Positions 28,190 through 50,776 are shown, counted from the first letter of the stretch. The stretch: 64,000 bases of DNA from an uncultured Acidobacteriota bacterium (GCA_963796275.1 CAWCKY010000006.1:1440001-1504000); one strand, 5' to 3'. Program-made: numbers and translations. Notes: a model not told the origin generated them from the sequence alone.

Positions 28190-29173
28190 ATGAAAAAGTT
28201 AGGATGGGGGTTGATCGGTTGCGGCGATATCTCCCGTAAACGAGTCGCTCCGGCTATCCGAGATATCGCGGAATGCGATCTCGTCGCAATCAGTCGCGCG
28301 CAGCGCGAATTGGCCGAAGAGTTCGCCCGAGAATTTGGTGCCCGGCGCTGGTACGATGATTGGAGCGCGTTGATCGCCGACCAGGAGATCGATGCCGTAT
28401 ACATTGCGACGCCCGTAAACTTACACGCGCAACAGGCTATCGCAGCGGCCTCGGCGGGCAAGCACGTCCTGTGCGAAAAGCCGATGGCGATGGATGTCGC
28501 GCAGTGTGACCGCATGATAGCGGCATGCCGCGCAAACGGCGTCAAACTCTGCATCGCCTATTATCGCCACTTCTATCCAATAATCGGCCGCATCAGGGAA
28601 ATTATCGAGTCGGGCGAGATCGGCGCCCCGGTCATCGCTCAGATCAACGCCTTTGAGATGTTCAATCCGCAGCAGGGCGAGCCGCGCTACTGGTTCGTAA
28701 AAAAAGAGCAGGCCGGCGGCGGGCCGATGATGGACTTCGGCTGCCACCGTATAGAAGTCCTCATGAATATTTTCGGTAAGGTCAAATCGACCGCTGGGAT
28801 CATCGATAACATCCTTTTCGAGCGTGAGGTCGAGGATACCGCGATCGCCTGTTTTTCGTTCGAGAACAGGATGCGCGCGACCTTGACTGTCACGCACACG
28901 GCGTTCGAGTCGCAAGACACGCTCGATATATTTGGCAATCGCGGCTCGATTCACGTACCCCAACTCAACCGCGGCCAATTACGCGTTGTCACCTCGTCGG
29001 GAGAGAGAACCGAACTGCTTCCCCCACACGCGAATATTCACCAACCATTGATCGAGGACTTTATTCATGCGGTGTTGGGCGATCGCGATCCGAAAGTCGG
29101 GGGTGATGTTGGAAGGGAAGTGGCCCGTATTGAAGAAGATATATACACAAACCGTCACAGCGCGACGTTATGA
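28190..29173 (+). CDS. Gfo/Idh/MocA family oxidoreductase
   Basis: WGLIGCGDI, GKHVLCEKP and GGGPMMDFGCH. Start at MKKLGW after GAGG. Confidence 0.92.
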   Translation: MKKLGWGLIGCGDISRKRVAPAIRDIAECDLVAISRAQRELAEEFAREFGARRWYDDWSALIADQEIDAVYIATPVNLHAQQAIAAASAGKHVLCEKPMAMDVAQCDRMIAACRANGVKLCIAYYRHFYPIIGRIREIIESGEIGAPVIAQINAFEMFNPQQGEPRYWFVKKEQAGGGPMMDFGCHRIEVLMNIFGKVKSTAGIIDNILFEREVEDTAIACFSFENRMRATLTVTHTAFESQDTLDIFGNRGSIHVPQLNRGQLRVVTSSGERTELLPPHANIHQPLIEDFIHAVLGDRDPKVGGDVGREVARIEEDIYTNRHSATL

Positions 29174-29277
29174 AAAGATAAAAAAAAGTTCCAGTGTCGA
29201 CTGCCGCTTCCTTCGCCGCCTGCGCGCGGCGGAGTGCCGATGACTAAATTAGCTTTTTTCTGTGGGAGTTTTTTACT

Positions 29278-29940
29278 GTGGACGTAGTATTAAATGAGTA
29301 TGAATTGCGCGTTCTGGGTGCGCTCGTCGAAAAACAGATTGCCACGCCGGACTATTACCCGCTCTCGCTCAACGCCCTGATGAATGGTTGCAATCAGAAG
29401 AGCCATCGAGACCCGGTGGTCTCTTACGATGAAGCTACTGTCGCGCGCGCGATCGATGGCCTGAAAGAGAAAAAAATTATTTATGTCTTTCATGGTTCGG
29501 AGGCTCGGGTCCCGAAATATGGCCATCTTTTTCCGAAAGCTTATGAATTGAATGAAGTTGAGGTCGCGGTGATGTGCGTCTTGATCTTGCGTGGGCCGCA
29601 AACTCCCGGGGAACTGCGCTCGCGCACATCGCATCTTCATAATATCGAGCAACTGAGCGATGTCGAAACTACCTTACAGAGCCTCTCATCGCGCGAACAG
29701 CCGCTGGTCGTCAGGATGGCGCGGTTGCCGGGGGCGCGCGAGTCCCGCTATGCCCATCTGTTCGGCGGCCCGGTCAGCGTTGACGATGTCACCGCTTCGC
29801 CGAAAACGGAACTCGCAACCCCGCGCGTGCCGGTGGATGATGGGCGATTGGCGAGATTCGAAGAAGAGATTAGATCGATGCGCCGGGAGATCGACGAATT
29901 GAAGCAGGAATTTGCAAAATTTAAGAGCCAGTTCGAATAG
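29278..29940 (+). CDS. yceH: YceH/DUF480 (UPF0502) family protein
   Basis: RVLGALVEKQIATPDYYPLSLNAL, CNQKSHRDPV, LRGPQTPGELRSR and RESRYAHL; C-terminal coiled coil. Confidence 0.9.
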   Translation: MDVVLNEYELRVLGALVEKQIATPDYYPLSLNALMNGCNQKSHRDPVVSYDEATVARAIDGLKEKKIIYVFHGSEARVPKYGHLFPKAYELNEVEVAVMCVLILRGPQTPGELRSRTSHLHNIEQLSDVETTLQSLSSREQPLVVRMARLPGARESRYAHLFGGPVSVDDVTASPKTELATPRVPVDDGRLARFEEEIRSMRREIDELKQEFAKFKSQFE

Positions 29941-30038
29941 GTCAGATCCATTGACGAGTCATTTAAGCTTATGTTAAAAGCCACTGACCGACCAAAGCTG
30001 CTCCGGACCTTTTTCTCCCCCAAAGTGAGTATTTGGGT

Positions 30039-31079
30039 ATGAGGCTGCATGTATTTGCATTGATTCTATGTTGTACGATTCCTTCGTTCGCGCAGACTGA
30101 ATCGCAAGACTATCTCACTGATGCATCGCTCCCGCTGCCGACAAATGGTACTAAAATCCGCACGCCTAAACCGCTCGCGCCATATAAAATCTATCGTATC
30201 AAAGTCACATCGCCCTACAACCTGAAATCGGTTTATTCCGAGAGCCAGGGGAACTACGAAACTGACATCCTGATCGATGGGAAATTTTTACGTACCATCT
30301 CGTTCGACGAGGGCTCTGACAGTCACATCGGCAATCTCGAATTTCTATATCGAGGATACGGTAAGCAGGTTTACATCGGTTTCACCAGAGACCATTACAA
30401 AGAGATCGAACGTGCTCAGATTCAAATCTACGCCGAGGGGTGGATGCAAAAAGTTTGGCGCGAGCGGTTCAGCAGAAGCTGGCGAGTCTACGGCGAATAT
30501 ATAGCTGGATTTTTGATCCTGGTTCCGCTCATTTTATCGCTCGGGTTCTATCTCAACCGGTGGAGTCAGAGAAATAGGGCTGATGAAAAGAAGTTGGAGA
30601 TGGAGCGCCAGGCTATGATCCTCAACTCGCATAACAAAAGCCTGGAACTGATAAGGGAGATCGATCAAAGGGCCCAACAGAAATCCAACGAACTTATCGC
30701 AAGGAACTATGACGAATTGCAAAAGAAGATAATGTATTGGCGCACACGGGCATACACGGAATCTTATTTTCTCAATTCCGACCTGCGAAAAAGTTATGCT
30801 GCCGTCAATCGGGATAAGATTATCAACGAACTCGAGAAGGAATGGACCAATGAATTTCTGGATATAGCGCAGGATCTGGCTCTCGGGAAAGCGCTCAAAG
30901 AACAGGAGCCGGGCGTCATGCATTGGATAGAAGCCCGGCAGGAGGTGGTGAATATCGCACATCAGCTCACCTGGAGTACTCAGCCCGTGATAGACGCATA
31001 TTTTGAAGAGGTTCCTGGTCAGGTCATCCCCGACGAGGGGGAGGGGCAGGTGCAGGCCGAAAAGTCCGCTCAAAACTAG
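30039..31079 (+). CDS. Hypothetical single-pass membrane protein
   Basis: Signal peptide (SFA-Q), about 130 aa exported domain, TM IAGFLILVPLILSLGFYL and helical cytoplasmic region. Confidence 0.75.
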   Translation: MRLHVFALILCCTIPSFAQTESQDYLTDASLPLPTNGTKIRTPKPLAPYKIYRIKVTSPYNLKSVYSESQGNYETDILIDGKFLRTISFDEGSDSHIGNLEFLYRGYGKQVYIGFTRDHYKEIERAQIQIYAEGWMQKVWRERFSRSWRVYGEYIAGFLILVPLILSLGFYLNRWSQRNRADEKKLEMERQAMILNSHNKSLELIREIDQRAQQKSNELIARNYDELQKKIMYWRTRAYTESYFLNSDLRKSYAAVNRDKIINELEKEWTNEFLDIAQDLALGKALKEQEPGVMHWIEARQEVVNIAHQLTWSTQPVIDAYFEEVPGQVIPDEGEGQVQAEKSAQN

Positions 31080-32265
31080 CCGTCAAGGTGATTTCGCACA
31101 ATGCTCCGGCGTAGCTTTGATTTCCGCCATCGCCCACAGAGCCGTTCAGATAAGCGGTGACCTCTACCCGCGTGCCTTTGGGAAACGCCCGAGGCCGTCT
31201 GAAGTAATAGACCGGCTGCCAATCGAATCGATATTTCTTCGCCCATATCAATACTTCAATGGTGCCATCGGGTCGATAGGCCCTGACTTCCATCGACTCG
31301 TTGTCAGGGTAGAGGAGCGGGCGTATTGCGACAGACTCAGTCGGCGCACTGATTGTGTGAGTGGCCCTCACGCGACCGTTATCCGCAATTGCCCCGCGCG
31401 TGCCTATGATGATCGTGCGGGCTGCTTTCCTGATCCGGTCTTTTGCGAAATAAAAACCGATGCGGCTGCGGTCAGTCGCAGCTTCGCCATTTTTGCGGTA
31501 ATGGAGCTTCAGCAGGATGCTGGAATTCGCCGGCAGCAGGCGGCCGATGCCATCCGGCAGGTGATTGACCGCCTGGCCGGGCACCCATTGTCCCAGGCTT
31601 TCAAGATTCGCCGCTTCACCGCCGCAGGTTTCTTTGCCATGCCCCGCCTTTCGCGTATTACTTTCGATAAAGAATGATGCGCTGTAGACGATGGCGCCGT
31701 TTCCCGGCTTAAAGTCGAATGCGCTGATCCAGCGATCTTCTTTCGATCTCACGGGCAATGCAAAACAGCGGACTTCATCATCGCCGTTTGCCGAGATATT
31801 CGTCGCGCTTTCGGGCTCGAGAATCAAATCCGGTTGGCCGAGAGTCCAGTCATCGCCTTTTATTATCCGATCGATCGCTTGTCCGGGATAGTCTTTATCT
31901 TCGCCGCGCGGGGCGCCGCCCTCGACCCAGGATACGATCAGGTCTAGTTCGCGCTGCGGCAGGATGTAATCGTGCTGGAACGCGCCATAACCTTTGACCG
32001 CCTGGTAAGGCATCATCCGCTTCTCCAGCACCTCTTCTTTGATCGCCTTCGCCCAGGGGCGCGATTCTTCGTAAGTCGTCAAGGGGATATCAGCCTTGAT
32101 CTTCCCTACGCTGTGACACCCGAGGCAATTGCGCTGAAAGATGCGGATGATCTCCTTATTGAACATCACTTTGGTGGTGATCGGCTCGTGCGTGCTGCCG
32201 GAATGAGGGAAGAGCAGAACGATGAGGGTCGTAATAAGGATTAGTGCGAACTTCTTCGGATGCAT
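31024..32265 (-). CDS. Cytochrome c + copper monooxygenase-like protein with degenerate copper sites (paralogue 5)
   Basis: CLGCH and RMMPY retained. HH is replaced by YS (IVYSASF), PHMH by PLLY, and the DEMM motif is absent. LKLHY and FDWQ are kept. Confidence 0.8.
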   Translation of the reverse strand: MHPKKFALILITTLIVLLFPHSGSTHEPITTKVMFNKEIIRIFQRNCLGCHSVGKIKADIPLTTYEESRPWAKAIKEEVLEKRMMPYQAVKGYGAFQHDYILPQRELDLIVSWVEGGAPRGEDKDYPGQAIDRIIKGDDWTLGQPDLILEPESATNISANGDDEVRCFALPVRSKEDRWISAFDFKPGNGAIVYSASFFIESNTRKAGHGKETCGGEAANLESLGQWVPGQAVNHLPDGIGRLLPANSSILLKLHYRKNGEAATDRSRIGFYFAKDRIRKAARTIIIGTRGAIADNGRVRATHTISAPTESVAIRPLLYPDNESMEVRAYRPDGTIEVLIWAKKYRFDWQPVYYFRRPRAFPKGTRVEVTAYLNGSVGDGGNQSYAGALCEITLTASFERTFRPAPAPPPRRG

Positions 32266-32293
32266 AAATTGAGCAAGTGAACTTCAGCGCAAT

Positions 32294-32353
32294 AATCACA
32301 AAAAGGACTAAAACCACAAAAAGTCCGTTTGTGATTTTGTCCTTTTTGCGATT
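32294..32353. repeat. Long inverted repeat between paralogues 4 and 5, possible terminator or processing hairpin
   Basis: aatcacaaaaaggactaaaaccacaaa pairs with tttgtgattttgtcctttttgcgatt. Confidence 0.65.
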
Positions 32354-32362
32354 TTATGTTGA

Positions 32363-33631
32363 TCACTCCGCTGCTTTCTCAGCCGGTTTCGATCCAGTAA
32401 CGTTATAATAGCTCAACCAGCCGATCATCATCTCCTCCCACGTCTGCTCGCCCCACTTAACATCCTTGGAAGGGTCAGGATTGAATCTGTTGTTGGACGA
32501 ATTGTCGAAGTGTGCGACGCATTCGATCTTCGTGCCTTTCGGGATCACAATCGGTTCCTTCGGAACGTAATATGTCTGCCAGTTGAAATCATAGTTCGGC
32601 ACATTGAGCAGTACTTTCGATGTCCCGTCAGCGTAGATCGCCTTGATTTCGAAATCTTTGCCGCGCAGATGCATATGAGGCATGAGGTTCGAGAGTTGCA
32701 CGTCCTCCTTGAACGTATAGGTGGATTTAACCTCATGGCTCGCGGCGCCGGCCGGGATAACAAAAGTCGTGTTGAGGACCGGGCGGGTGAATATTTGATG
32801 CTTCGGCGGCTCTTTCGCGTATTTCAGACCGACCGTCGTGATATCTTTTGTCGCCGTTCCATTGGGAGTGTAATGCATCTGGAAGATTAGAGTCGCGCCG
32901 GCCGGAACCTTTTTCGCCGTTCCGGGCCGATAGATCGCCGGTTGTTCGCCGGGCGCTGTTCCGACCAACAAATTGCTGTCGATGCGCGCCGGCGTCTTCG
33001 GGTCTTGGATGAACACGATAACGTGGTGCACGGCTGAACGGGCAGTGCTGCGAATCTCCGCCGCCGTAATCCAGCGGTCTTCTTTGAAATTGGTCGGCAC
33101 CCTGAGATAGAGGTATTTGACAACGCCGGTCGAGGGAACCGATTGCTCTGGGATTGAGAAGGTTTCATCCGGCTTACCGATACCCCATCCTTCGACAAAT
33201 TTCGGCGCGGGGGGCAGAAGCTTCGGATCGCCCTCCTTTGCTCCCCCGTCGACCCAGGAGACTATGGTGTCTATCTCGCTCTGCGATAAGCGGCGATCAT
33301 TAAGCCATTCGCCGTGGTTCGGGTCGGCGTGCCAGGGCGGCATTTCGCGCGAGACCACCTTTTCGCGAATCGATTTCGCCCAGGGACGGGCATCTTTGTA
33401 GCTCATTAACGAAAACGGCCCGATCTCGCCCGCCCGGTGGCACTCGGCGCAGTTCTTGAATAAGATCGGCGCGACATCTTTAGAAAAAGTAATATTCTTC
33501 GCCGCCGTCTTATCGCGCCCGGATTCGCCAAAGGATGCTTTGCCATCAGCTGTAGCGAATGGTTGTAAAAATAGACAAAGGGGGCCCAATATGAGAATGG
33601 CGGCAGTGACAATCAACTTTTTTTTCATCAT
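32363..33631 (-). CDS. Cytochrome c + PHM/DBH-type copper monooxygenase fusion (paralogue 4)
   Basis: Signal peptide; CAECH; MPPW; AVHHVIV; FQMHY; PHMHLRG; YDFNWQ; EEMM. Confidence 0.85.
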   Translation of the reverse strand: MMKKKLIVTAAILILGPLCLFLQPFATADGKASFGESGRDKTAAKNITFSKDVAPILFKNCAECHRAGEIGPFSLMSYKDARPWAKSIREKVVSREMPPWHADPNHGEWLNDRRLSQSEIDTIVSWVDGGAKEGDPKLLPPAPKFVEGWGIGKPDETFSIPEQSVPSTGVVKYLYLRVPTNFKEDRWITAAEIRSTARSAVHHVIVFIQDPKTPARIDSNLLVGTAPGEQPAIYRPGTAKKVPAGATLIFQMHYTPNGTATKDITTVGLKYAKEPPKHQIFTRPVLNTTFVIPAGAASHEVKSTYTFKEDVQLSNLMPHMHLRGKDFEIKAIYADGTSKVLLNVPNYDFNWQTYYVPKEPIVIPKGTKIECVAHFDNSSNNRFNPDPSKDVKWGEQTWEEMMIGWLSYYNVTGSKPAEKAAE

Positions 33632-33683
33632 CTATACCTCTTGATCTTTACTTATCGGGCACTCTCGTTCCGATCATCTTGAC

Positions 33684-33908
33684 TCAGATTGACTCAGACC
33701 GTTTATAGAGCCAGAAAGAAAAGCCTATAACTATAATGCCGATGGGGATTAAGCCTAGGCTTCTATCCCAGGACTGAACGACAGGCGGTAAAATAAGATT
33801 TTTTTGCAACAGGAGAAGGATACCGCCGAATACGGATTGCGTGAGCAACAACAACCCTGTGACGAGCAGGATGCGATTAAACATATGCAATCGATGTGAT
33901 TTACTCAT
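33684..33908 (-). CDS. Small two-TM membrane protein inside the array
   Basis: 74 aa with two hydrophobic stretches; GAGG RBS; ATG 15 nt after the preceding stop. Confidence 0.7.
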   Translation of the reverse strand: MSKSHRLHMFNRILLVTGLLLLTQSVFGGILLLLQKNLILPPVVQSWDRSLGLIPIGIIVIGFSFWLYKRSESI

Positions 33909-33923
33909 ATGTTAACCTCGAGT

Positions 33924-35636
33924 TTACCGGGGGCGCTCGCTTCCGTTTTTATCGACCTTCTTCGCCCGGATGTTTCGACGGTTCATCTCGAAAAGTAATT
34001 CGCTGACCTCGCCTCTATCATTTTTGATAAATGTCACCTGCGCATCCACGACTTTGAAGAAGAACTTCGTCTCCGATTCCGGAAATGCCTGAATCCGCGG
34101 CTGGCCGGGAGCGACGAAGAAAAGTTTATCATTTTCGCGCAGTATGGTGAATTTCGGACCCAAACCAGTCGCGTACTCGCCTGTATAAGAATCGTAAATA
34201 TTGGCATCAACCCGGGCGACGTTGCGTTCTTTCGGTTTTTCTCGAATGAAATCGATAAAGCCGACGAGCATTTCATCGTAAGTAGGTTCGCCGAAGCGAA
34301 CAGCCCGGGTAGGGTCGGGGTTGTGCTCGTTCTTCGCCGAATTGTCAAAATGCGCGGTGACCATAAACTTTGCGCCTTTGGGGACGGGGACGGGCTTATT
34401 AAGCTTGTAGAGCGTTTGCCAGTTGAAGTTGTAATCGACCGACAGCAGAGTCTCGCGACGCCCGTCCGGATATAAGACTTCAAACTTCATATCTTTTCCG
34501 CGCACGTGCATATGTGGCATGTAATTGACCAGTTGCACATCGCGCGGAAAAATATAGCAGGCTGTGGCTTCATGATTTTCAGCCCCCGGCGGAATCTTGA
34601 AGAAGAAGTTGGTCACGTCACGGGATTCGATCATATGCTCGACGGGAGCTTTGGCGAACTGCAGGCCGACTATCGTGCGGTCTTTCTCGGGTTTGCCGGT
34701 AGTCTTCGCGTAGTGCATCTGGAAGATGAAGTTCGATCCGGCCGGGACGCGTTTGGCGGTTCCCGCCGGCCAGACATCCGCGTTTCTGCCGGGAGCGTAT
34801 ACGCACAGCAACCGCGCTCCTGCATTGCCGCTGATCGCCCCTCCATTGGGGGAACTGCAGCCATCGTCAATCACCTGGGCATCCGGAGATACCCTCCTGA
34901 CCGTGCCTTCTTTTCTTAGGACGGAGCCCGCTTCGCTCTCGAAGAGCGAAGGTGCGGAGCGCGGATCGAATCGCTGTCCCCGCCGGGCTGCATTTGCTTG
35001 GGCCATCTCCAATAGTTCCGGGGACTCTATGAAGACTGCCGCGTGATGCACTATGCGCTTGTTCCCCGGGCGAAATTCGACGGCCTGTATCCATTTATCC
35101 TCGGTGAAATTGGTCGGCACGCGGAAGTAGATGTAATCATCGGCGCCCGAAGCCGCGAGCGTGTACTCCTCGGGCATGGCGAGAGTGACATCGGGTTTTC
35201 CGATCTCCCAGGTCTCGTCGAATCGGGGTGCCGGCGGCAGGTCTCGCGGGTTGCCTTCTCCCGCTCCCTGATCGATCCATGCGACGATCGTGTCGATCTC
35301 CCGTTGCGACAGGCTAGGATTGTTGGAGAAATCGCCGTAACGCGGATCGGCGCTCCAGGGCGGCATTTCGCGATTAATCACCTTCTCGCGGATAGATTTC
35401 GCCCAGGGGCGGACATCTTTGTAGCTCAGGACCGAGAAGGGAGCGATGTCATCGGGTTTGTGGCAGCTCGCGCAGCTCTTGTAGAGGATGGGCGCCACAT
35501 CTTTGCTGAAGCTCACGTGCTTGGATGTTGGCAAAAATGGCAAGAAAGGCAAGAGGGAGAAAAATGAGGCGAAAACGAAAAAGGCCTGGAATCTCCCCCT
35601 TTTGCACATGCCTATTTTTGTCTTTTTTGTTTCCAT
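33924..35636 (-). CDS. Cytochrome c + copper monooxygenase fusion with C-terminal DUF3471-like domain (paralogue 3)
   Basis: CASCH; MPPW; IVHHAAV; FQMHY; PHMHVRG; DEML; tail YDSYTGEY...FPESETKFF...TFIKNDRGEV. Start taken at METKK. Confidence 0.85.
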   Translation of the reverse strand: METKKTKIGMCKRGRFQAFFVFASFFSLLPFLPFLPTSKHVSFSKDVAPILYKSCASCHKPDDIAPFSVLSYKDVRPWAKSIREKVINREMPPWSADPRYGDFSNNPSLSQREIDTIVAWIDQGAGEGNPRDLPPAPRFDETWEIGKPDVTLAMPEEYTLAASGADDYIYFRVPTNFTEDKWIQAVEFRPGNKRIVHHAAVFIESPELLEMAQANAARRGQRFDPRSAPSLFESEAGSVLRKEGTVRRVSPDAQVIDDGCSSPNGGAISGNAGARLLCVYAPGRNADVWPAGTAKRVPAGSNFIFQMHYAKTTGKPEKDRTIVGLQFAKAPVEHMIESRDVTNFFFKIPPGAENHEATACYIFPRDVQLVNYMPHMHVRGKDMKFEVLYPDGRRETLLSVDYNFNWQTLYKLNKPVPVPKGAKFMVTAHFDNSAKNEHNPDPTRAVRFGEPTYDEMLVGFIDFIREKPKERNVARVDANIYDSYTGEYATGLGPKFTILRENDKLFFVAPGQPRIQAFPESETKFFFKVVDAQVTFIKNDRGEVSELLFEMNRRNIRAKKVDKNGSERPR

Positions 35637-35661
35637 CACAACTTCTCTCAGGCGGCTTAAT

Positions 35662-37056
35662 TCATCGCCTCGCCGTCGAGGCCTTCGCTGATTTGCCATC
35701 GATCGTGTACTCAATCATGCCGACCATCATCTCATCATAGGTCGGATCGCCGAATCGGACGGACTGAGAAGGATCCGGGTTGTATTTATTCTTGCTCGAA
35801 TTGTCGAAATAACCGGTGACGAGTATCTTCGTTCCTTTGGGTATCGGGATCGGCTTCGCGGTATAGTAGACCGTCTGCCACGAGAAACTGTAGTTCGGCA
35901 CATTGAGCAGGACTTCGGTTCGGCCATCCGGGTAGATCGCCTTGAAATCCATCGCCACGCCGCGCAAGTGCATGTGCGGCATTAAATTTACGATCTCTAT
36001 ATCGTCTTTCACCGTCCAGCAAGCGGTCGTGCGATGCCGCTCGGCGCCTGGCGGAATCATGAAGTAGCCGTTGGCGATGCTCCTGGTTAAGAGTTTTTTC
36101 CCGCTCGGATTTTTGGCGAAGATCAAACCGACGCTGGAACGGTCTTTTTGCACCGATCCCGCGGACTTCGAGTAATGTAATTGGAGGAATATCTTTGACC
36201 CGGCGGGAATCTTTTTGATCATACCCGGTTCCAGGACCGTCTGGTTCATCCCCGGGGCATATCCCGTCAGATACGTTACATCTCCCTCGTCCCCGCCCCC
36301 GTCTCTCCTGTCGCCCTGTCCCCCATTCGGCAACGAGCACCCGTCGTCATAAATGGGAGCTTCCCTTCTGGTTCGCCGCAGAAACCCGTCGTTGTAACGG
36401 ACGGTCTCTTCACCTTTCTGCGTGCTCTCTACTTTGGCCGGCTTCGGACCCGGTTTGGCGGGTTCGGCCGGCGGCTGAATGATGGCCGCGATGTGATGCA
36501 CTATCTTGCGATTGCCGGGGCGCGCCTCAGCCAACTGCACATACTTATCTTCCGTGAATTTGGGATCGATCTGGAAGTATCGATACTCATCCGGCCCGCT
36601 GGCTTCGAGCGTGAACTCCTCGGGCATCGTCAAAACGATATCAGGCTTGCCGATCGTCCAGCCATCGGCGAACTCAGGCTGAGGCGGCAAATCTTTCTCA
36701 TCGCCTTCGGGCGCGCCCTGGTCCACCCAGGCGACTATCGCATCGATCTCCTTTTGCTCTAAACGGCGATCGTTCGCCCATTGGCCGGTATGCGGATCGG
36801 CATGCCAGGGCGGCATTTCACGGCTCAAGACTTTTTCCCGAATCGATTTGGCCCAGGGCCGCGCATCTTTGTAGCTCAAAGTCGAGAATGGCGCGTTCTC
36901 ACCCGATCGATGGCACTCGGCGCAATTCTTGAAGAAGAGCGGGGCGATGTCTTTGTTGAATGTCACGCCGTGCGCCCCCTGGCTTGTCGGCATCGACCAA
37001 AGCAAGAGCGCCGCGACGCTGGCCAGAGAAATGACGGTCGTGTGAACAATTTTCAT
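35662..37056 (-). CDS. Cytochrome c + copper monooxygenase fusion (paralogue 2)
   Basis: Signal peptide; CAECH; MPPW; IVHHIAA; LQLHY; PHMHLRG; YSFSWQ; DEMM. Confidence 0.85.
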   Translation of the reverse strand: MKIVHTTVISLASVAALLLWSMPTSQGAHGVTFNKDIAPLFFKNCAECHRSGENAPFSTLSYKDARPWAKSIREKVLSREMPPWHADPHTGQWANDRRLEQKEIDAIVAWVDQGAPEGDEKDLPPQPEFADGWTIGKPDIVLTMPEEFTLEASGPDEYRYFQIDPKFTEDKYVQLAEARPGNRKIVHHIAAIIQPPAEPAKPGPKPAKVESTQKGEETVRYNDGFLRRTRREAPIYDDGCSLPNGGQGDRRDGGGDEGDVTYLTGYAPGMNQTVLEPGMIKKIPAGSKIFLQLHYSKSAGSVQKDRSSVGLIFAKNPSGKKLLTRSIANGYFMIPPGAERHRTTACWTVKDDIEIVNLMPHMHLRGVAMDFKAIYPDGRTEVLLNVPNYSFSWQTVYYTAKPIPIPKGTKILVTGYFDNSSKNKYNPDPSQSVRFGDPTYDEMMVGMIEYTIDGKSAKASTARR

Positions 37057-37172
37057 TTATTTCACCTTTTTCACTGAGCCGCCGGAGAGAGGATCAGCTC
37101 AAACAGATATATCTCTTTCCACTCTCCGAGTCTTTTTGTGCTTCGATGGTTAGATTCGTAATTAAAGTTTCG

Positions 37173-38849
37173 TCATTGCCCGACCTGCCGGGCAGCTGCC
37201 GTCTCCTTGACTCTCTTCACGCGCGTGGTGCGCCCGCCCTCCAGCAGAGCTTCGGATACCTCGCCTTTGTCATCCAGGATGAAGGTGAGGTCTACATCGC
37301 TGCCGCGCATGAAGAACTTCGTTTCGGACTGCGGCAGAAATTCCATCTTCGATTGCAGCGGGACCTGTATGATCAGGGAATTGCCGTTTCGCGTGACGGT
37401 GGCGAAGATATTCGGACTCACCTCGTACTTGCCGGTATATTTGTCCAGTATCTTAGCTTCGACATGTGCCACTGCGGGCGCCTCCGCGACGGAGTCCATG
37501 AAACCGAGCATCATCTCATCGTAGGTCGGCTCGCCATAACGCACTTCCTTCGACGGGTCCGGGTTGAATCGGTTCTTCGCGGAATTGTCGAAATAGGCCG
37601 TGACCATCAGCTTACTCCCTTTGGGCAGTCGCTTGGGCTCCTTCAAAATATAGTTGGTCTGCCACGCGAATTCGTAGTTGGGAACATTGATCAGCGTCTC
37701 CGATTTCCCATCCGGGTAGAAGACTTTATACTCCATTGCTTTGCCGCGCAGGTGCATATGCGGCATGAGGCCGTAGATGATCGTATCGCGGCGCAGCGTG
37801 CGGCAGGCGGTTACGCGGTGATTCTCTGCGCCCGCCGGAATCTTGAAGAAAATATTGCCGATCGAGTTGGTAATGACGATCTTCTGAGGCGGCTCCTTGG
37901 CGAAGATCAGTCCCACCATCGACCGATCTTTTTCGACGGCATCGCTCCCCAGCGTCTGATTGGAATAGTGAATCTGGAACCGAATAATCGAGCCGGCCGG
38001 AATTTTCCGTGCGATCCCGGGCTCGAAGACATCCGCGTTTCTCCCCGGAGCATAGCCAGTCAGAATGCTCTGATTTTCGCCGCCGCGTGCGGCACTGGAT
38101 GATCCGCAGGCGTCATCGACCACCGGTTGATCGGGTTTCACGCGCAGCAGATATCCATCGCGATAAAACGGCGAGTTCTTGAGCAACATCTCCATCGCTT
38201 TATATCGCTGATCGGTGGTCATCTTAGCCATATTAGGCGAGCCGGGCGGGATGATGAATGCGAGGATATGATGGACGATCTTGCGATTCCCGGGCCGCGC
38301 CTCGACATTCGATACATACTTGTCCTCGGTAAATTTCGGATCGATGTCGAAATATTGATACTCATCGACGCCGGCCTTGTAGGTGTACTCCTCGGGGACC
38401 TGAACGACCATATCCGGTTGGCCGATATTCCAGCCGTTCGCGTATTTGGGAGCAGGCGGAAGGTCCTTTGCGTCTCCTTCCTTGGCACCGCCGTCCACCC
38501 AGGCGATGATCGTATCGATCTCTTTTTGCGAAAGGGAGCGGTTATTTTTAAATTCACCGTGAGAATCCGCATGCCAGGGCGGCATCTGCCGATTCAACAC
38601 CTTCTCGCGGATGGATTTCGCCCACGGCCTCACGTCCCTGAAACTCAAGGCCGAGAAGGGCGCGCCTTCACCAGGGCGATGGCACTCAAGGCAGTTCTGG
38701 AAAAATATGGGAGCGACATCTTTGGTGAATGTAATATCAGTCTTGGCCGTCTTTTCGTCATATGCATTGCCGGTCTCGCTCATGAAATAAAATGCAATTA
38801 AACACATGACGGCTGCTAAGGACAGGTAATAGGAACGTTTGATAGGCAT
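37173..38849 (-). CDS. Cytochrome c + copper monooxygenase fusion with C-terminal DUF3471-like domain (paralogue 1)
   Basis: Signal peptide; CLECH; MPPW; IVHHILA; FQIHY; PHMHLRG; DEMM; tail LDKYTGKY...LPQSETKFF; GAGGAG RBS. Confidence 0.85.
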   Translation of the reverse strand: MPIKRSYYLSLAAVMCLIAFYFMSETGNAYDEKTAKTDITFTKDVAPIFFQNCLECHRPGEGAPFSALSFRDVRPWAKSIREKVLNRQMPPWHADSHGEFKNNRSLSQKEIDTIIAWVDGGAKEGDAKDLPPAPKYANGWNIGQPDMVVQVPEEYTYKAGVDEYQYFDIDPKFTEDKYVSNVEARPGNRKIVHHILAFIIPPGSPNMAKMTTDQRYKAMEMLLKNSPFYRDGYLLRVKPDQPVVDDACGSSSAARGGENQSILTGYAPGRNADVFEPGIARKIPAGSIIRFQIHYSNQTLGSDAVEKDRSMVGLIFAKEPPQKIVITNSIGNIFFKIPAGAENHRVTACRTLRRDTIIYGLMPHMHLRGKAMEYKVFYPDGKSETLINVPNYEFAWQTNYILKEPKRLPKGSKLMVTAYFDNSAKNRFNPDPSKEVRYGEPTYDEMMLGFMDSVAEAPAVAHVEAKILDKYTGKYEVSPNIFATVTRNGNSLIIQVPLQSKMEFLPQSETKFFMRGSDVDLTFILDDKGEVSEALLEGGRTTRVKRVKETAAARQVGQ

Positions 38850-38908
38850 AATTACTTCTCCTCGCTGATCGGTTGAGTACCAGATTGTTTGTTTATGACC
38901 TCGCCGCT

Positions 38909-38938
38909 AATCTACGGGTAAAAGCTGCGCCATGTCAA
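38909..38938 (-). promoter_or_regulatory. Candidate sigma70 promoter of the monooxygenase array
   Basis: Minus strand TTGACA-18 nt-TAGATT, about 60 nt upstream of the first ATG. Confidence 0.55.
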
Positions 38939-39011
38939 GCTCAATAAACCTCCAGTTTATCCAATCATTTCAATAATATCGCGCCGTTACGCCGCCTTAT
39001 ATCTGTAATTG

Positions 39012-39060
39012 ATTGACCGGTCGGACAATAGTCGAATCGAGACTGAATGAGCGTTCAGTC
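39012..39060. promoter_or_regulatory. Two imperfect palindromes, candidate repressor operators
   Basis: attgaccggtcggacaat (39012-39029) and gactgaatgagcgttcagtc (39041-39060). Confidence 0.45.
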
Positions 39061-39273
39061 ATTTATTTTTATAGCTCAAGAATCTGGATCTGGAGAGCAA
39101 AGTAAGTCGTAACGCGAGAAGCGACCCGAGTAGAGCTTACCGCGTTTGCGGACGGTGTGGATAAATTCCAAGAGACCGAGATAGAGCGGTAATTCTTTCC
39201 CATGTCGGTTCGCCGGTTAACGCGTTATAATTTCTATGTATTACCTGCGGTCAGCCAAACAAATGGGAGGGGG

Positions 39274-39855
39274 ATGATTCCTGTGCCACAGGATGTAACT
39301 CAGCTATTGGCAGATTGGAGCAACGGCGATCAGACAGCGCTCGATAAACTGCTGCCGCTGGTCAACGCCGAGTTGCGGCAACTTGCCAGGCGCTATATGC
39401 GCCGCGAAAATCCGGGCCACACTCTGCAAACTTCGGCGCTGGTCAATGAAGCTTATCTGCGACTGATAGATCAAAAGAGCGTGCACTGGCAGAACCGCGC
39501 TCACTTCTTCGGGATCGCGGCGAAGCTGATGCGGCGTATTCTGATCGATCACGCGCGCAGCCGTCATTACGCGAAGCGCGGCGGCGGAGCGCTGAAGGTT
39601 TCGCTCGACGAAGCCGACGCCGTGACCGAGCCGCGGGCCGCCGAACTGCTCGCGGTCGACGAGGCGCTCGAGCAACTGACTGCGATGGACGCGCGCAAAG
39701 GCCGCATCGTCGAGTTGCGTTTTTTCGGTGGGCTGAGTCTGGCAGAGACAGCGGAAGTATTGGGCATTTCATCACCTACGGTGCAGCGCGAGTGGCGGGC
39801 GGCCAAAGCGTGGCTGCGACGGATCTTGTCGGAGGGCAAAGTTGATGACGCCTGA
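39274..39855 (+). CDS. ECF sigma factor, kinase-associated (TIGR02999/ECF43-like)
   Basis: DVTQLL...[44 protein letters not shown] and [12 protein letters not shown]. Overlaps the kinase start. Confidence 0.92.
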
Positions 39856-42628
39856 GCGGTTTAGGCAAGTCGAAGCGATATTCCACTCGGCCCTCGAGCG
39901 CGCGCCTGGGGAGCGCTCGAGTTATCTAGATCAAGCTTGTGCCGGGGATGATGCGTTGCGCCGCGAGGTCGAACTGCTGATTGTCGCCGACGAGCGGGCC
40001 GGAAGCTTGATTGAACTCCCGGCTTATCAGCTCGCTGCCCCGATGCTCGCTGAGGATGGTTCGCGCTCGCTCATCGGTAAGAGCATCGGCCATTATCGAA
40101 TCATCTCTCTCCTGGGTAGGGGCGGGATGGGCGAGGTCTACCGCGCACACGACACCCGGCTGGGCCGCGAGGTCGCGATCAAAGTCCTGCTTCGCGAATA
40201 TTCCGTCGATGCCGACCGCTTGCGCCGCTTCGAGCAGGAGGCGCGCGTCGTCGGGAGGCTAAATCATCCGAATATCCTGACGATCTATGACATCGGCACT
40301 TACGGCGGCCCACCCTATCTGGTCGCCGAACTGCTCGAGGGCGCGACGCTGCGTGAGCAACTGCGCGGAGCGGCGTTGCCGTTGCGCCGGGCATCGGACT
40401 ATGCCGTGCAGATAGCGCGCGGGCTGGCGGCGGCGCACGATAAAGGGATCGTGCATCGCGACTTGAAGCCGGAGAATATCTTCGTCACCAAAGATGGGCG
40501 ACTCAAGATTCTCGACTTCGGGCTGGCGAAATTAAGGCGAAAGCTGCCTGGCGGCGCGGTTGACACAGGCGCCCCGACCCATCCATTGGGTACCGCTCCC
40601 GGCGTGGTGATGGGAACTGTCGGCTATATGTCGCCGGAGCAGGTGCGCGCCGAGGAAGTGGATCATCGCTCGGACATCTTCGCCTTCGGAGCGATTCTCT
40701 ACGAGATGCTCGCGGGACAGCGGGCGTTTGGCGGCGCGTCGACGGTTGAGACGATGAACGCAATCCTGAAAGAGGAGCCGCCGGAGCTGTCGCAGACGGA
40801 CCCCAAAGTCGTCCCCGCGCTTGAGCGCGTGATGCGGCGCTGCTTGGAGAAGAGCGCGGAGGAACGCTTCCAATCGGCGCGCGACCTGGCCTTTGCCCTG
40901 GAAGCATTGTCAGGCGTCTCTGCTCCGAGCACGGTTGCTCAGGCGGTTGAGCCTGCGCGAGCGGGACGGCGCCTATGGCTCTGGCCCGCTAGCGCATTGA
41001 TGATAGTCGCGGTCGCCCTGGCGTCATTCTTCGTCGGCAAGCGGGCGGAAAAGGCGCCGCCTGAGTTTCAGCGGCTCACTTTCCGCCGCGGGGTGATCGG
41101 GGAAGCGAGATTTGCCCCCGACAGCCAAACGATCATTTATAGCGCAATGTGGCAGGGCGATCAGCGCCAACTCTACTCGACCCGTCCGGAAAGCCCGGAG
41201 TCACGCCCGCTCGGACAGCCAGACGCCGACCCCCTGGCGATCTCAGCTTCGGGCGAGTTGGCTATCGCGCTCCACCCTTTTCGCCTCGGCTTTGGCCTCA
41301 AGGGGACACTGGCCCAAATGCCGATTACAGGTAGCGCGCCCCGCCCAGTTCTCCCAGATGTTTTCGCTGCTGATTGGGCTTCAGACGGAAGGCGGCTCGC
41401 TATTGCCCGTGAGGTTAACGGGCGAAACCGGATCGAATTCCCGATCGGAACAGTTCTCTATGAGACAGCCGGCACAATCTTCCGACTGCGCATCTCGCCG
41501 AAAGAGGATTGGATCGCCTTCACGGAGGACAGTTCCATTGCGGTGATTGACATCGCGCGCCGGAAGAAGATTCTCTCAAGCGGGTGGAATAGCACAAATG
41601 GTATCGCCTGGTCTCCCAGCGGTGATGAGGTCTGGTTCACTGCTGCCGAAGTGGGTTACAACGCTGCCCTCTATGCCGTCACGCACGCGGGTCAGCAACG
41701 CCTGGTGGCGCGCGTGCCGCATGGGATAAGACTTTTCGATATCTCCCGCGACGGGCGAGTCCTGCTGGTGAGCTATCATGTCAGTAAAGGGATCATGTGC
41801 CTTGCCCCAGGCGAAACACATGAGCGAGATTTGTCCTGGCTCGGGTGGGGACACATGGCCGACATTTCAGCCGATGGAAAACTGCTCCTCTTCACTGAGG
41901 CCGGGGAAGGAGGTGGAGCAGGCCAGGCGGTCTATTTGCGGGCGACCGACGGCTCGCCGGCTATCCGGCTCGGCGAGGGTGAGGCAAACGCTCTCTCACC
42001 AGATGGAAAATGGGCGCTCACGATTCGCCGCATCCGTTCGTCATCGCAGGTGATCTCACAAGTAATGCTGCTGCCAATCGGGACGGGGGAATCAAAAACG
42101 CTGACCGATGACCAGATCAACTGGCAGAGTGCGAGATGGTTTCCAGACGGGAGGCGCATTCTCCTGAACGGCAACGAACAGGAACGGGGAGTGCGCGGCT
42201 ATATCCTGGAACTCGAAGGCGGGAAGCCGCGTCCGATCACGCCAGAAGGGATAGCCGGGAGGCTCGTTTCACCTGATGGTCGATGGTTGATTACCTCAGA
42301 TGCCCTACAAAAGCTCTCTCTCTTCCCTCTAGGTGGGGAGGAGCCACATCCGGTTCCCGGTCAGGCCGATGGAGATGAGCCGATCCAATGGAGCGCCGAC
42401 GGACGGTCAATTTACGTGCGTCAGGACAGACAGGATCTCAACACCATGAGAATCTATCGGCTTGAGCTTTCGACCGGGCGCAGAGAATTACGGAAAGAAT
42501 ATATCCCCGCCGATCCATCGCGAACTGCTCGATTGCTCCCGCTGGCGCTGGCACCTGATGGGAAATCGTATGCCTATACCTACGCGCGTAACTTTTTTGA
42601 TCTTTATCTGGTCAAGGGATTGCGGTGA
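39842..42628 (+). CDS. Ser/Thr protein kinase with TM segment and TolB/PD40-like beta-propeller sensor
   Basis: [23 protein letters not shown] and YMSPE; TM near aa 380-398; repeated S/APDG motifs. Confidence 0.93.
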
Positions 42629-42632
42629 GACC

Positions 42633-43379
42633 TCAATTGAACTGCTGGCACAAGAACTTGTTCAGCTTCATGCGCTCGTCCAGCGACGGGTGCGTGTTGG
42701 ATTTTTGCCACTTCGCAATGCCTGATTTAATGGCGACGACCCCCATGCGCAAAAGGATGCGGCCATAGCTCGCCGGGTCATCGCCGATCTCCTTCAGAGT
42801 AAATGCCGCCACCGCATCGCAGAAAAACTCGCACTCTCGTATCAGTTTCCAGTCCTTCTCCCTCAGCGCGTTGACTCGTTCATTCCAGACGTATTCGTGC
42901 GCCAGTTCGTGCGCGATGATGCCGCGAATCTCTGCATCGTCGGCGATATCCATCATTCGAGTCGTGATGATGATGACCGCGCGCGCGACCAGATAGGCTT
43001 GGGGCTGATCTGACCGCAATACGTAAATCGGTAGCCGGCTTCGCCCGTGGTAGTCGAGCACAGGTTGCACGACAGCCTTGAGTCTATCGGCGCTCTTGCT
43101 TTTCACGACTGGCAAATATTGCAACTCGACGATCTTGTTAATAAGCAGCGGGCCAGGTAGATAAGCCGGTAGACTCATCTGCGTTAAACGTTCACGAATC
43201 GCAGCGGGTGAGAGACCGCCGAGGCGCTCAAGAGCGTTTGCCGCCTCCTCTCCTCCCATAGATTCTTCCTGCTTGCCATCTGCACTGATACCACTGGCGA
43301 GGTTCTTTGTAGTCTGTCCAACTAATGTAACTGTAAAGGCGATGATGAGAATAGAGTTGAAGAAGACTTGCTTTAACAT
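42633..43379 (-). CDS. Exported M48-like zinc metalloprotease
   Basis: Signal peptide; EIRGIIAHELAH, CEFFCD and THPSLDER; AGGAG RBS before MLKQV. Confidence 0.8.
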   Translation of the reverse strand: MLKQVFFNSILIIAFTVTLVGQTTKNLASGISADGKQEESMGGEEAANALERLGGLSPAAIRERLTQMSLPAYLPGPLLINKIVELQYLPVVKSKSADRLKAVVQPVLDYHGRSRLPIYVLRSDQPQAYLVARAVIIITTRMMDIADDAEIRGIIAHELAHEYVWNERVNALREKDWKLIRECEFFCDAVAAFTLKEIGDDPASYGRILLRMGVVAIKSGIAKWQKSNTHPSLDERMKLNKFLCQQFN

Positions 43380-43901
43380 GGCTTCTCCTTTTCGAAGCGC
43401 TACGACCGCGCTCTCGGCATACAGCCGACATCCGGACACACTTTGGCTCGAAGGCCTCCAAAGCTGACCTTTCTGCGGCGTTGAATCTGGAAATTTGACT
43501 TCGGGCGCTGAACGAGGTCGTTTCAGCCTCTCGCTGCCTTCATCATCTAACGCGAGAGATGGGGCAAACCCCCATCACGATTTCGGAGGATTTTTTTGGC
43601 CGAGGGGCTTGGGAATATTGCTAAATTCTTGAAAACAATGGCGACGTGGCGACTAGAGCTACGGTTTGCAGCGGCTGCTATCTTGGGAGGTAGAGAAATC
43701 AAGCTCCTGATTCGCATATTGAGCCATGTTTTATAACGAGGCTTCCCAATTTTTCGTTGTTGCTTTGATGCAAGCTGATAATCCCCGCATCGTTCTGGCA
43801 TCGGTGAGTTAGAAGTGTTGGAACTTTCGCCTACGACTGAGTGTCGAATCAGAACAAGAAACGGGAAGAAAGAAATGGGAAGAAAGATGGGAGGATAAGC
43901 C

Positions 43902-46418: not shown

Positions 46419-46449
46419 AGACGAAATAGAAATAAAGACGAAATAAAAT
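46410..46449. repeat. Short GAAATA tandem repeats around the stop codon
   Basis: acgaaataag-acgaaata-gaaataaag-acgaaataaa. Confidence 0.6.
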
Positions 46450-46464
46450 GCTTGTTTGATCCTT

Positions 46465-49315: not shown

Positions 49316-50776
49316 TTAAGTTTTCTGACCGCGCTCGCGCCAGACCCAGCCGAACTGCGTGTTGGACGGTTGCGGGGCTAGGTCGTATTCACGCTTCAGC
49401 TCGGAGACCTTGTCGGCCTGGATAGCATTGCGTTGCGCTTTGACGTCGATTTTGTAGAGTTTCGCCGCGTTAAGACCGAATATCTTCGCTTTGATTTCGG
49501 GCGATACCTTCTTGTATCCGTACTTCTGGGCGATCTCATCGCTGATCTGGAAACGGCGCAGGCGCTCGATCTGCGATTGCGGACTTCCGCCCCAGATCGA
49601 ATCGGTGCCCCAGATGATGCGATCTTCGCCGCCCGGCAGGTTGAGAATCTGCCCGATGAAATGCATCGCTGCGACACCATTACCATTCGACATATAATTC
49701 CACGTGCTGCCTATCTCGAAATAGACGTTTTTCAGTTGGTTCTTCTTGACGATTTCGATCAATTCGGAGCACCACGGGATGTATTGCGGGCTGGCGGCGG
49801 CGCCTTCGCGGCGGCGCGTACTCGCCGCACCCGGATGCCAACCGGAGTGATAGATGATGAAGTTGAGGTCCGGGAAATCTTTTGCCGTTTTTTCGACATC
49901 CTTCGGATGGCAGTGCTCTTCGTCGAAGAGGCCGAGCGGAAGGCCCTTGTGGATGCAGATGTTCTTCACGCCCAGCTTGCGCGTGCGCTCCCAGAAAGGG
50001 TAAGTGCTCTGCTCGTCATCGAGCCAATAGGGGCCGCTTCCGATTCGGGAGCCAGTATACAGCTTCCACGAATTGATCTTGAGTTTTTTGACCTGGCGCT
50101 CCATCTCCTCGAATTCAGGTTTGCCCATGTTCGGCCGCAATAACCCATGGCTGAGCATGCGCCCGGTGCCGCCCGCCATTCTATTGATGGCATCGCGCGT
50201 CTGCACCATCTTGTCGGGAGGCAGTATGTTCTCGTTCCACTCAGCCGATGGCACACCGCTGATAATCGCCATCGTCGTATCGCTGTCCATGAATAGCTCT
50301 TTTATGTAATGGGCTTGATTGAGCAGGGCGAGCGCATCAGCCGTCGATTCGGCATTGCGGCGAAACGAGCGCAGGAAAGTGGCCGCCTGTTTGCCTGCCT
50401 CGGTCGTCTCGAACCAGCGGCTCTCGACGTCAATATGATGCGTCTGATTGTCGAAGATGAACCCGTCCTTCGGCCATTTTTCCGCATAAGCCGCCGGGTC
50501 GAGCGCCTCGATCGGGTCTATCTCATAGGTTTTACCGAAGACCTCGTTGTAGGCGAGCATGGCGACGGCCATTCCTCCCGTCGTCCCGAGAAATCGGCGA
50601 CGCGAGATGCCCAGCCTCTTCGCGCAGAGACCGGCGAGTTCGAAAGTGCGCTCCTCCCAGCGCGCTTCTTCGACAGTCTGCGAAGGCGGTATGAACTCTT
50701 CGTTCGAGCAGATTTCCGTAGGTATAGGAGATTGAAACGGCTTCTCCTCATCGGCGAAACATTTACGAATCCACAT
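49316..50776 (-). CDS. Amidohydrolase (TIM-barrel, Amidohydro_2-like)
   Basis: FDNQTH, CIHKG, IYHSG, WGTDS and KIFGLNAAKLY. Confidence 0.87.
   Translation of the reverse strand: MWIRKCFADEEKPFQSPIPTEICSNEEFIPPSQTVEEARWEERTFELAGLCAKRLGISRRRFLGTTGGMAVAMLAYNEVFGKTYEIDPIEALDPAAYAEKWPKDGFIFDNQTHHIDVESRWFETTEAGKQAATFLRSFRRNAESTADALALLNQAHYIKELFMDSDTTMAIISGVPSAEWNENILPPDKMVQTRDAINRMAGGTGRMLSHGLLRPNMGKPEFEEMERQVKKLKINSWKLYTGSRIGSGPYWLDDEQSTYPFWERTRKLGVKNICIHKGLPLGLFDEEHCHPKDVEKTAKDFPDLNFIIYHSGWHPGAASTRRREGAAASPQYIPWCSELIEIVKKNQLKNVYFEIGSTWNYMSNGNGVAAMHFIGQILNLPGGEDRIIWGTDSIWGGSPQSQIERLRRFQISDEIAQKYGYKKVSPEIKAKIFGLNAAKLYKIDVKAQRNAIQADKVSELKREYDLAPQPSNTQFGWVWRERGQKT

Follow-up and report, generated by a model that had tools for sequence, protein, structure and literature searches.

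Peptidylglycine alpha-hydroxylating monooxygenase (PHM) and dopamine beta-hydroxylase (DBH) carry two copper ions about 11 Å apart and hydroxylate C-H bonds with O2 and two external electrons, which come from ascorbate in the animal enzymes. In this study we analysed a row of five genes of a soil acidobacterium whose products combine a leader, an N-terminal mono-haem cytochrome c and a body of the PHM/DBH type. The row lies in a stretch of 64,000 nucleotides from an uncultured Acidobacteriota bacterium (GCA_963796275.1, CAWCKY010000006.1:1440001-1504000; hereafter the window, with positions counted from its first letter). The listing of open reading frames (ORFs) showed five co-oriented minus-strand ORFs filling 31024-38849, the coordinates already given by a first-pass annotation of this DNA, and the products were labelled P1 to P5 in the order of transcription (Table 1). 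Our results suggest that P1-P4 are probably exported two-copper monooxygenases which receive their electrons through the haem of the tethered cytochrome in place of ascorbate, while P5 has lost the copper ligands.

One of the closest systems of solved structure is PHM, the catalytic core of peptidylglycine alpha-amidating monooxygenase (PAM; entries 1phm, 1opm, 1sdw and 6ala). It has the fold in common with the array proteins (Z 20-21, about 255 residues aligned, root-mean-square deviation (rmsd) about 3), the family profile picks it up by sequence (E 7e-10) with HH...H and HxH in register, and its ligand set is conserved in P1-P4. However, the array proteins are only 14-19% identical to PHM; they are bacterial, are exported by a leader, carry a fused haem c at the N-terminus and have no domain of the peptidyl-hydroxyglycine lyase (PAL) of PAM. 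The reductant of PHM is ascorbate, whereas that of the array proteins is presumably the cytochrome. In the group of DBH and the DBH-like MOXD proteins, DBH (4zel) gave the best structural match to P2 (Z 22.1), and an extra N-terminal domain precedes the core both in DBH and in the array proteins, but it is a DOMON domain in DBH where the array proteins have a class-I-type cytochrome c, and the identity is 14-15%. The redoxin-cytochrome c-PHM-like fusions of the same bacterial family are nearer in sequence, sharing both the cytochrome and the copper core (38-54% identity to P2 for the representatives listed). Many of them add AhpC-TSA/Redoxin together with esterase, GDSL lipase, CBM48, PQQ-type propeller, ankyrin or EF-hand domains, none of which occurs in the array members. 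Cytochrome c-fused copper nitrite reductases and quinohaemoprotein dehydrogenases are periplasmic redox enzymes as well, in which a tethered cytochrome c links the enzyme to soluble carriers. Their likeness to the array proteins is one of functional analogy alone, as folds and metal sites are unrelated and none appeared among our matches.

The predicted two-copper core of P1 to P4

The first-pass annotation had described five co-oriented paralogues with an export signal, CxxCH and a M(P/M)P(W/Y) segment, four of them with ordered copper motifs, and the ORF listing and the alignment agreed with this. CxxCH and M(P/M)P(W/Y) were present in all five proteins, and VHH, Q(I/L/M)HY, MPHMH and (D/E)EM appeared in a common order across P1-P4. 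Leaders were judged by eye: each N-terminus consists of a basic stretch and then a hydrophobic stretch, and small residues at -3/-1 were evident in P1 (GNA before Y), P4 (ATA before D) and P5 (GST before H), less so in P2 and P3. The genes are separated by gaps of 25-292 nt. The pattern of the array cannot be put down to chance, given identities of 27-54% between the full-length paralogues and six ligand columns with little or no variation among 56 sequences of the family. The paralogues differ from each other in an insert of 40-70 residues between the CuH ligands and in the tails of P1 and P3, which matched DUF3471 (PF11954, cut-off 29.3 bits) with 45.2 bits (E 1.3e-11) and 38.5 bits, respectively. 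DUF3471 was not mentioned in the literature searched, and the tail had no useful PDB match by sequence.

In the 56-sequence alignment (P2 numbering), C45, C48, H49, M81 and H294 were invariant, and H187, H188, H361, H363 and M443 were conserved in at least 90% of the sequences. From these columns H187, H188 and H294 are predicted to form the His3 site of CuH, and H361, H363 and M443 the His2Met site of CuM. All six ligands were kept in every sequence of the four array types, that is in 27/27 of P1-type, 30/30 of P2-type, 44/44 of P3-type and 51/51 of P4-type (152/152 altogether). When the profile of this alignment (A2) was compared with PDB sequences, it matched rat PHM (E 7.4e-10) and human DBH (E 2.5e-8), and in the alignment with PHM, vHH fell on VHHM, lqvHY on LQVHY and mpHmH on vHtH. 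Thus the proposed His/Met residues correspond to the CuH and CuM ligand sets by profile alignment and conservation, the CuM Met being assigned from conservation and order alone because it lies outside the stretch aligned with PHM. A search of PDB with the single sequence of P2 gave weak cytochrome matches alone, and NCBIfam returned nothing meaningful for any of the five array proteins.

Models of P2 and P5 were built without cofactors. The AlphaFold2 model of P2 (predicted local distance difference test (pLDDT) 88.4; predicted template modelling score (pTM) 0.85) was matched by Foldseek to DBH in the first rank (E 1e-13) and to PHM entries next (about 1e-11). VIA-align superposed 275 residues on DBH 4zel (rmsd 3.2) and gave Z values of 17-21 for 25 PHM entries, with residues 136-458 of the model lying on 55-328 of PHM. 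The best unrelated fold, PNGase F-like, reached Z 9.3, and no bacterial relative of solved structure was among the Foldseek or VIA-align matches. The presence of the two PHM beta-sandwich domains in the models had been set beforehand as a test of the annotation, and the Z values to DBH and PHM show that the models contain them. The core of P1-P4, as modelled for P2, would thus consist of two beta-sandwich domains of the PHM/DBH type, and by predicted fold and ligands these four proteins belong to the PHM/DBH superfamily. In the Pfam check suggested by the same annotation, PF03712 (Cu2_monoox_C, cut-off 23 bits) was matched at or near its cut-off by four of the five proteins (26.5 bits in P2 and 23.6 in P3; no match in P5), but the N-terminal PHM model, PF01082, was not matched.

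Cytochrome domain and electron flow

The haem motif and the Met occur in all five array proteins, and their residues (C45, C48, H49 and M81 in P2) are among the columns invariant in the 56 sequences. The Met of MPPW (M81 in P2) is probably the sixth haem ligand. PF00034 (cut-off 21.3 bits) was passed by P2 with 24.9 bits, and PF13442 stayed below its cut-off of 27 in all five (16.8-25.6 bits). The cytochrome part of the A2 profile gave weak matches to the haem region of hydrazine synthase alpha (E 2.4e-4) and to the cytochrome c of 4rlr (E 2e-3). In the host genome, PF01578 (CcsA/CcmF type) and PF05140 (ResB) were both above their cut-offs, indicating that the host is equipped with a System II apparatus for cytochrome c maturation. 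The haem c domain proposed earlier was hence supported by CxxCH, the invariant Met and the maturation genes.

The relatives give a hint of how electrons may reach the haem. An AhpC-TSA/Redoxin domain stood N-terminal to the cytochrome in 17 of 20 long family representatives, a sample biased by having been picked for length. Periplasmic proteins of the AhpC-TSA fold usually supply reducing equivalents, and the fused thioredoxin-fold domains are indirectly consistent with a reductive electron supply. The tails of the long representatives included esterase/S9-type hydrolase, GDSL lipase, CBM48, PQQ-type propeller, ankyrin repeats and EF-hands. These varied enzyme-like and carbohydrate-binding tails, like the inserts and tails of the array itself, fit diversified organic substrates.

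Fused cytochrome c domains are electron exits in other periplasmic enzymes. With the same cofactors, P1-P4 might oxidize a substrate or reduce O2, H2O2, superoxide or nitrite, the haem c being the exit or the entry to the respiratory chain and no organic compound being hydroxylated, by analogy with the cytochrome-fused copper nitrite reductases and the quinohaemoprotein dehydrogenases. The exit role known elsewhere would agree with such chemistry, as would the titles of PHM crystal entries with nitrite, azide and CO bound at copper (3mlk, 3mll and 3mlj) and the finding that no substrate-related gene is fixed beside the array in related loci; the AhpC-TSA fusions of the wider family also fit a peroxide-linked role. 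However, every PHM ligand, the Met of CuM among them, is kept in all 152 array-type sequences, which argues for O2-activating chemistry at CuM. Furthermore, the esterase, GDSL lipase, CBM48 and PQQ-type propeller tails point to organic and polymeric substrates, and one small inorganic substrate would hardly account for arrays with four to six diverged paralogues. We therefore regard this other chemistry as rather unlikely and keep to haem-fed hydroxylation for P1-P4.

P5, a conserved member without copper ligands

The fifth gene had been taken for an enzyme like the other four, and this part of the first-pass annotation did not stand, for P5 belongs to a conserved copper-less subfamily. At the four places of the copper motifs, P5 reads IVYSAS, KLHY, RPLLYP and CEIT in the alignment. 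Among 57 P5-type sequences CxxCH and the Met were kept in all, whereas H188 and H361 were kept in none, M443 in one, H363 in nine, H294 in 26 and H187 in 27. The P5 model was still PHM-like (Z 21.4 to PHM); its pLDDT was 66.6 overall, with the cytochrome part poor and the sandwiches good. The best 120 database relatives of P5 were 53-92% identical to it, had no precomputed Pfam match, and those with names were all called 'hypothetical'. In an alignment of 27 P5 sequences the mean column identity was 63%.

The motif H[ED]P[IVL]T[TS] at the predicted cleavage site distinguished the subfamily, as it was found in 56 of the 57 P5-type sequences and in none of 180 canonical ones, and the sole miss was a spurious overlapping ORF. 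A small residue preceded the motif at -1 in 55/56 and at -3 in 56/56, from which the His (H26) is predicted to be the first residue of mature P5. In the wider P5 set, the invariant ligand-type residues were this N-terminal His, CxxCH and the Met alone, so that conservation in P5 is centred on the haem domain. A histidine brace of the LPMO, CopC or PmoB type was considered for P5, and the version made with H98 was rejected, since xHDY was present in 20/57 alone; outside CxxCH, no second invariant His was found in the P5-type sequences.

At a threshold of our own (E <= 1e-118, canonical paralogues scoring 1e-88 or weaker), matches to the P5 profile were found in 34/38 genomes of the family to which the window belongs, in 31/34 of a second family and in 1/8 of a third. 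The other families of the class gave matches at the canonical level or none. P5 is thus a separate conserved clade which has kept the haem and the fold and lost the copper sites, and it is not a decaying copy. A prediction of the complex of P4 with P5 (score 0.00, mark 0.32) gave no answer and is evidence neither way.

Age of the gene row and extent of the family

A search with the P5 alignment, one genome per species, yielded 632 relatives, and 80 loci were kept, in which ORFs of at least 150 aa were typed by their best BLASTP match to the 14 family copies of the window's genome. A P5 orthologue was present in 58/80 of these related loci. In 53 of the 54 loci having upstream sequence, a co-oriented canonical member lay directly upstream of P5 (42 of P4-type, 5 of P2-type, 4 of P3-type and 2 of the C7 type), and P5 was always the last in the row. 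The survey of array size that had been proposed covered 32 arrays with the 5' end inside the locus: they held one gene (1 locus), two (3), three (4), four (14, the commonest), five (8) or six (2), and the identical order P1-P2-P3-P4-P5 was seen in one locus, L044. In a FastTree of 235 sequences, from which ORFs below 380 aa were excluded and two more were dropped for short alignment, clades were formed by the P1-type (26/26, support 0.996), P3-type (44/44, 0.995), P4-type (47/51, 1.0) and P5-type sequences (56/56, 1.0, with a stem length of 0.58), and the P2-type sequences were intermixed with the C7 type. The array is therefore an old, conserved gene row of Blastocatellia with a usual order, and not a recent amplification. 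The earlier view that the array had diversified in substrate through different inserts and tails holds insofar as both differ between the paralogues and the tails are varied in the family, but the diversification is not lineage-specific and belongs to an old conserved row.

Tandem, co-oriented paralogues may also arise by recent local amplification, and P5 would then be a decaying copy on its way to a pseudogene. Two other family copies of the genome do look broken, the single copy C4:586117-587368 by an in-frame TGA and C6:1813926-1815414, a member of a tandem pair, by a split into two ORFs. Nevertheless, the paralogues are only 27-54% identical, and the P1-, P3-, P4- and P5-types form separate, well-supported clades across many genomes. 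The P5 frame is intact and its sequence falls in a subfamily of its own with the high column identity given above; by our threshold, P5-type genes occur in nearly all genomes of two families (34/38 and 31/34). Recent amplification is hardly credible against this evidence, and an old row remains our reading.

The family reaches far beyond the array. Clusters of P2 homologues at 50% identity numbered 17,035 at E <= 1e-3, 10,659 at <= 1e-10 and 3,202 at <= 1e-30, and a word-indexed search with P2 gave at least 7,976 significant matches among the 8,000 candidates listed. The best of the listed matches were from Blastocatellia/Acidobacteriota and were named 'cytochrome c', 'mono/diheme cytochrome c family protein' or, rarely, 'copper type II ascorbate-dependent monooxygenase-like protein'. 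PF03712 matches to family members are already given in public databases. Of 201 genomes sampled from the phylum, 43 had a family match at E <= 1e-40, a count that takes in the window's own genome and an unpublished genome, G173. The 9.46-Mb genome of the window holds 14 family copies, namely the five of the array, a tandem pair and seven singles. As the first-pass annotation had assumed, no characterised member or locus of this sort was found in the literature searched, subscription journals being outside its coverage.

Such a number of copies could suggest that the proteins are not enzymes and serve in periplasmic copper storage, buffering or delivery, with the haem sensing or adjusting the redox state. 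The homologous animal enzymes bind Cu(I)/Cu(II) at these very sites, and P5 shows that the fold persists without them. However, a store or carrier is difficult to reconcile with two distinct, strictly conserved sites, one of them in the catalytic His2Met arrangement, with the enzyme-type and carbohydrate-binding tails of the family, or with the lack of copper-resistance or copper-transport genes beside the array in the window. We consider copper handling very unlikely, and an enzymatic function of P1-P4 is preferred.

Another copy of the family has a neighbour of a different kind. About 18 kb past the right end of the window, a B12-binding radical SAM protein with DUF4070 (L032:4990-6477, which is G000 C6:1521989-1523476) overlaps by 4 nt the start of the family copy C6:1523473-1524840, and here a cytoplasmic radical SAM enzyme appears to be coupled to an exported PHM-like protein.

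A linked gene of the Amidohydro_2 family

The earlier note has to be corrected in that a candidate second enzyme for the array does exist, a linked gene of the Amidohydro_2 family. Its product has 39% identity to those encoded immediately beside two single copies of the family at other places in the genome, C2 and C6:957k, which are the only copies in this genome with such a neighbour; no fixed partner gene adjoins the array itself. The genome has exactly three members of this Amidohydro_2 subfamily, and none of the three is farther than 10.5 kb from a family copy, the distances being 49 bp, 28 bp and 10,467 bp. The related locus L038 shows a co-oriented row of Amidohydro_2, a PG-binding gene, P1, P2 and P5, with Amidohydro_2 about 1.25 kb upstream of P1 and the PG-binding gene 62% identical to window 48398-49207. 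Single copies of the C1_1059k type are followed by an Amidohydro_2 gene in four further loci (L106, L109, L111 and L112). The Amidohydro_2 gene is thus genomically linked to the family, and it probably encodes an associated enzyme. The Amidohydro_2 proteins had no NCBIfam match and no solved relative in PDB by sequence.

Two side observations concern the same region. The stretch from the PG-binding gene to P1 in the window (38850-48397, about 9.5 kb) is absent from L038:5482-6734, which means either an insertion in the window or a loss in L038; the segment contains an ECF sigma factor, a kinase, an M48 peptidase, a VIT-VWA protein and an S15 X-Pro dipeptidyl peptidase. Moreover, a conserved extension of about 55 residues (MWIRK...SPIPT...SNEEF) precedes the twin-arginine-like motif both in the window protein and in L030:7414-8934, which is unusual for a leader of the twin-arginine translocation (Tat) pathway.

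A more specific version of the hydroxylase reading can be built on this linkage. P1-P4 might hydroxylate C-alpha of glycine-extended or N-acyl-glycine-type compounds, and Amidohydro_2 might act as a PAL which splits the carbinolamide, so that the outcome would be peptide amidation or N-dealkylation. The proximity of all three subfamily members to family copies, two of them directly adjacent, would agree with this, as would the co-oriented order Amidohydro_2, PG-binding gene, P1 in L038 and the C1_1059k-type copies followed by the amidohydrolase in the four loci; the twin-arginine-like motif, read from the alignment, suggests that a folded metal enzyme is exported. On the other hand, neither a PAL/NHL homologue nor a precursor peptide was seen among the window ORFs scanned, the amidohydrolase has no NCBIfam match or sequence-detectable solved relative, and it accompanies only 11 of the 58 P5-bearing loci. 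Amidation is hence improbable in our opinion, and we return to the general reading of P1-P4 as hydroxylases of organic substrates.

Proposed mode of action

What we infer from sequences and models, namely that metals are bound, which way the electrons run, the oxygenase chemistry with its substrate, and what P5 and the amidohydrolase do, would combine as follows. Periplasmic carriers would supply electrons that reduce the haem of P1-P4, and the haem would hand them singly to CuH and then to CuM. At CuM, O2 would be activated and a substrate in the periplasm hydroxylated at a C-H bond, following the reaction of PHM and DBH but without ascorbate. The paralogues differ in inserts and DUF3471 tails and so probably act on different substrates. 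P5 most likely would have a non-catalytic role, as an electron relay or as a docking or binding subunit, and the Tat-type Amidohydro_2 may process the hydroxylated product. One could go further and see in the locus a self-contained periplasmic oxidation module, a bacterial analogue of bifunctional PAM wired to the respiratory chain: several haem-fed PHM-type hydroxylases specialized by substrate; P5 distributing electrons or holding substrates, with its N-terminal His as a new haem- or metal-linked site; and a Tat-exported Amidohydro_2 replacing PAL on the hydroxylated intermediates. This extended picture is speculative and in our opinion improbable.

Several observations weigh against haem-fed hydroxylation and its link to the amidohydrolase. 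The haem could equally serve as an electron exit. The cytochrome Pfam models exceeded their cut-off in P2 alone; P1 (22.8 bits, E 7e-5) and P4 (22.1 bits) were slightly below the PF03712 cut-off, and the best score for PF01082 was 13.2 bits, in P1, with a cut-off of 30. The leader of P3 is without a clear cleavage site. As already noted in the first-pass annotation, no NHL/PAL domain was present among the Pfam matches of 37 ORFs, a search confined to the window; no precursor peptide was seen in the window ORFs scanned, and the array itself holds no clue to its substrate. In addition, the Amidohydro_2 gene stands about 10.5 kb from the array in the window, and in the fetched flanks a homologue was found for 11 of the 58 P5-bearing loci alone.

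PHM and DBH are classed as eukaryotic and ascorbate-dependent, and a table in a 2020 review places PHM and DBM in its eukaryote column (PMC7435645). The bacterial family is large, keeps the full ligand set and has a haem domain of its own. If active, these proteins would show how noncoupled two-copper oxygenases can run on respiratory electrons, and abundant soil bacteria would be seen to possess a class of C-H hydroxylases in the periplasm that is new. The locus also offers a compact test set: four diverged enzymes can be compared with a paralogue that lacks copper sites but retains fold and haem, a control provided by nature, and a candidate for the second enzyme is linked to them. New from the window are the conservation and order of the array, the conserved haem paralogue without copper ligands and with a predicted N-terminal His, and the linkage to Amidohydro_2.

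Other features of the window

The coordinates of the array genes and of further elements are collected in Table 1. For P3, the start at ATG is more likely because the gene then no longer overlaps P2 and its product is of a length in keeping with the orthologues (549-585 aa). The small ORF between P3 and P4 had one homologue alone (46% identity), in the equivalent place of L062 (1/80 related loci).

Table 1. Position of the array genes and other elements in the window
Feature	Position	Strand	Remark
P1: leader, mono-haem cytochrome c, predicted PHM/DBH-like two-copper core, DUF3471 tail	37173..38849	minus	558 aa, first in array
P2: leader, cytochrome c, PHM/DBH-like core	35662..37056	minus	464 aa, member modelled
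P3: leader, cytochrome c, PHM/DBH-like core, DUF3471 tail	33924..35714	minus	596 aa from TTG 35714, more likely 570 aa from ATG 35636
P4: leader, cytochrome c, PHM/DBH-like core without long insert	32363..33631	minus	422 aa
P5: leader, cytochrome c, PHM-fold body, CuH/CuM ligands lost	31024..32265	minus	413 aa, last in array
Doubtful gene: small ORF of 74 aa with two hydrophobic stretches, in the P3-P4 gap	33684..33908	minus	co-oriented with the array
Sigma-70-like promoter candidate, TTGACA-18-TAGATT, 10/12	38909..38938	minus	about 60 nt upstream of P1 start, consensus match alone
Amidohydro_2-family protein, 486 aa, twin-arginine-like motif	49316..50776	minus	PF04909, E 3.2e-19

The promoter scan gave 9 sites in the region against 5.9 +/- 2.6 in shuffled sequences, and neither the terminator nor the promoter scan rose above the shuffles, save for the lone 10/12 site before P1. 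Rfam had no match in 29000-41000 at the gathering threshold.

Divergent from the array, at 39202-42628, an extracytoplasmic function (ECF) sigma factor (PF07638) overlaps by 14 nt the gene of a 928-aa Ser/Thr kinase with PD40/beta-propeller repeats. This pair was considered as regulators of the array and rejected, as a kinase match was found in 1/80 related loci (L062, 29% identity) and the segment is absent in L038. At the other end of the array, a plus-strand ORF of 348 aa (30033-31079) without Pfam or NCBIfam match shares 56 nt with the 3' end of P5, and homologues with 50-58% identity occupy the equivalent place in L038, L058 and L067.

Farther to the right, 52035-55799 encodes a second Ser/Thr kinase (with DUF4384) and then a 560-aa protein with an FGE-sulfatase (formylglycine-generating-enzyme-like) domain. 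Co-oriented genes at 56133-63357 encode an M28 peptidase, three tandem HlyD-family membrane-fusion paralogues (484, 415 and 427 aa) and a permease of the MacB/FtsX type. The left part of the window, 828-23612, is a neighbourhood of polysaccharide use with an arabinofuranosidase, GH95, a pectate lyase and a ROK regulator, together with two very large barrels of the OMP_b-brl_4/TonB type (1203 and 1318 aa).

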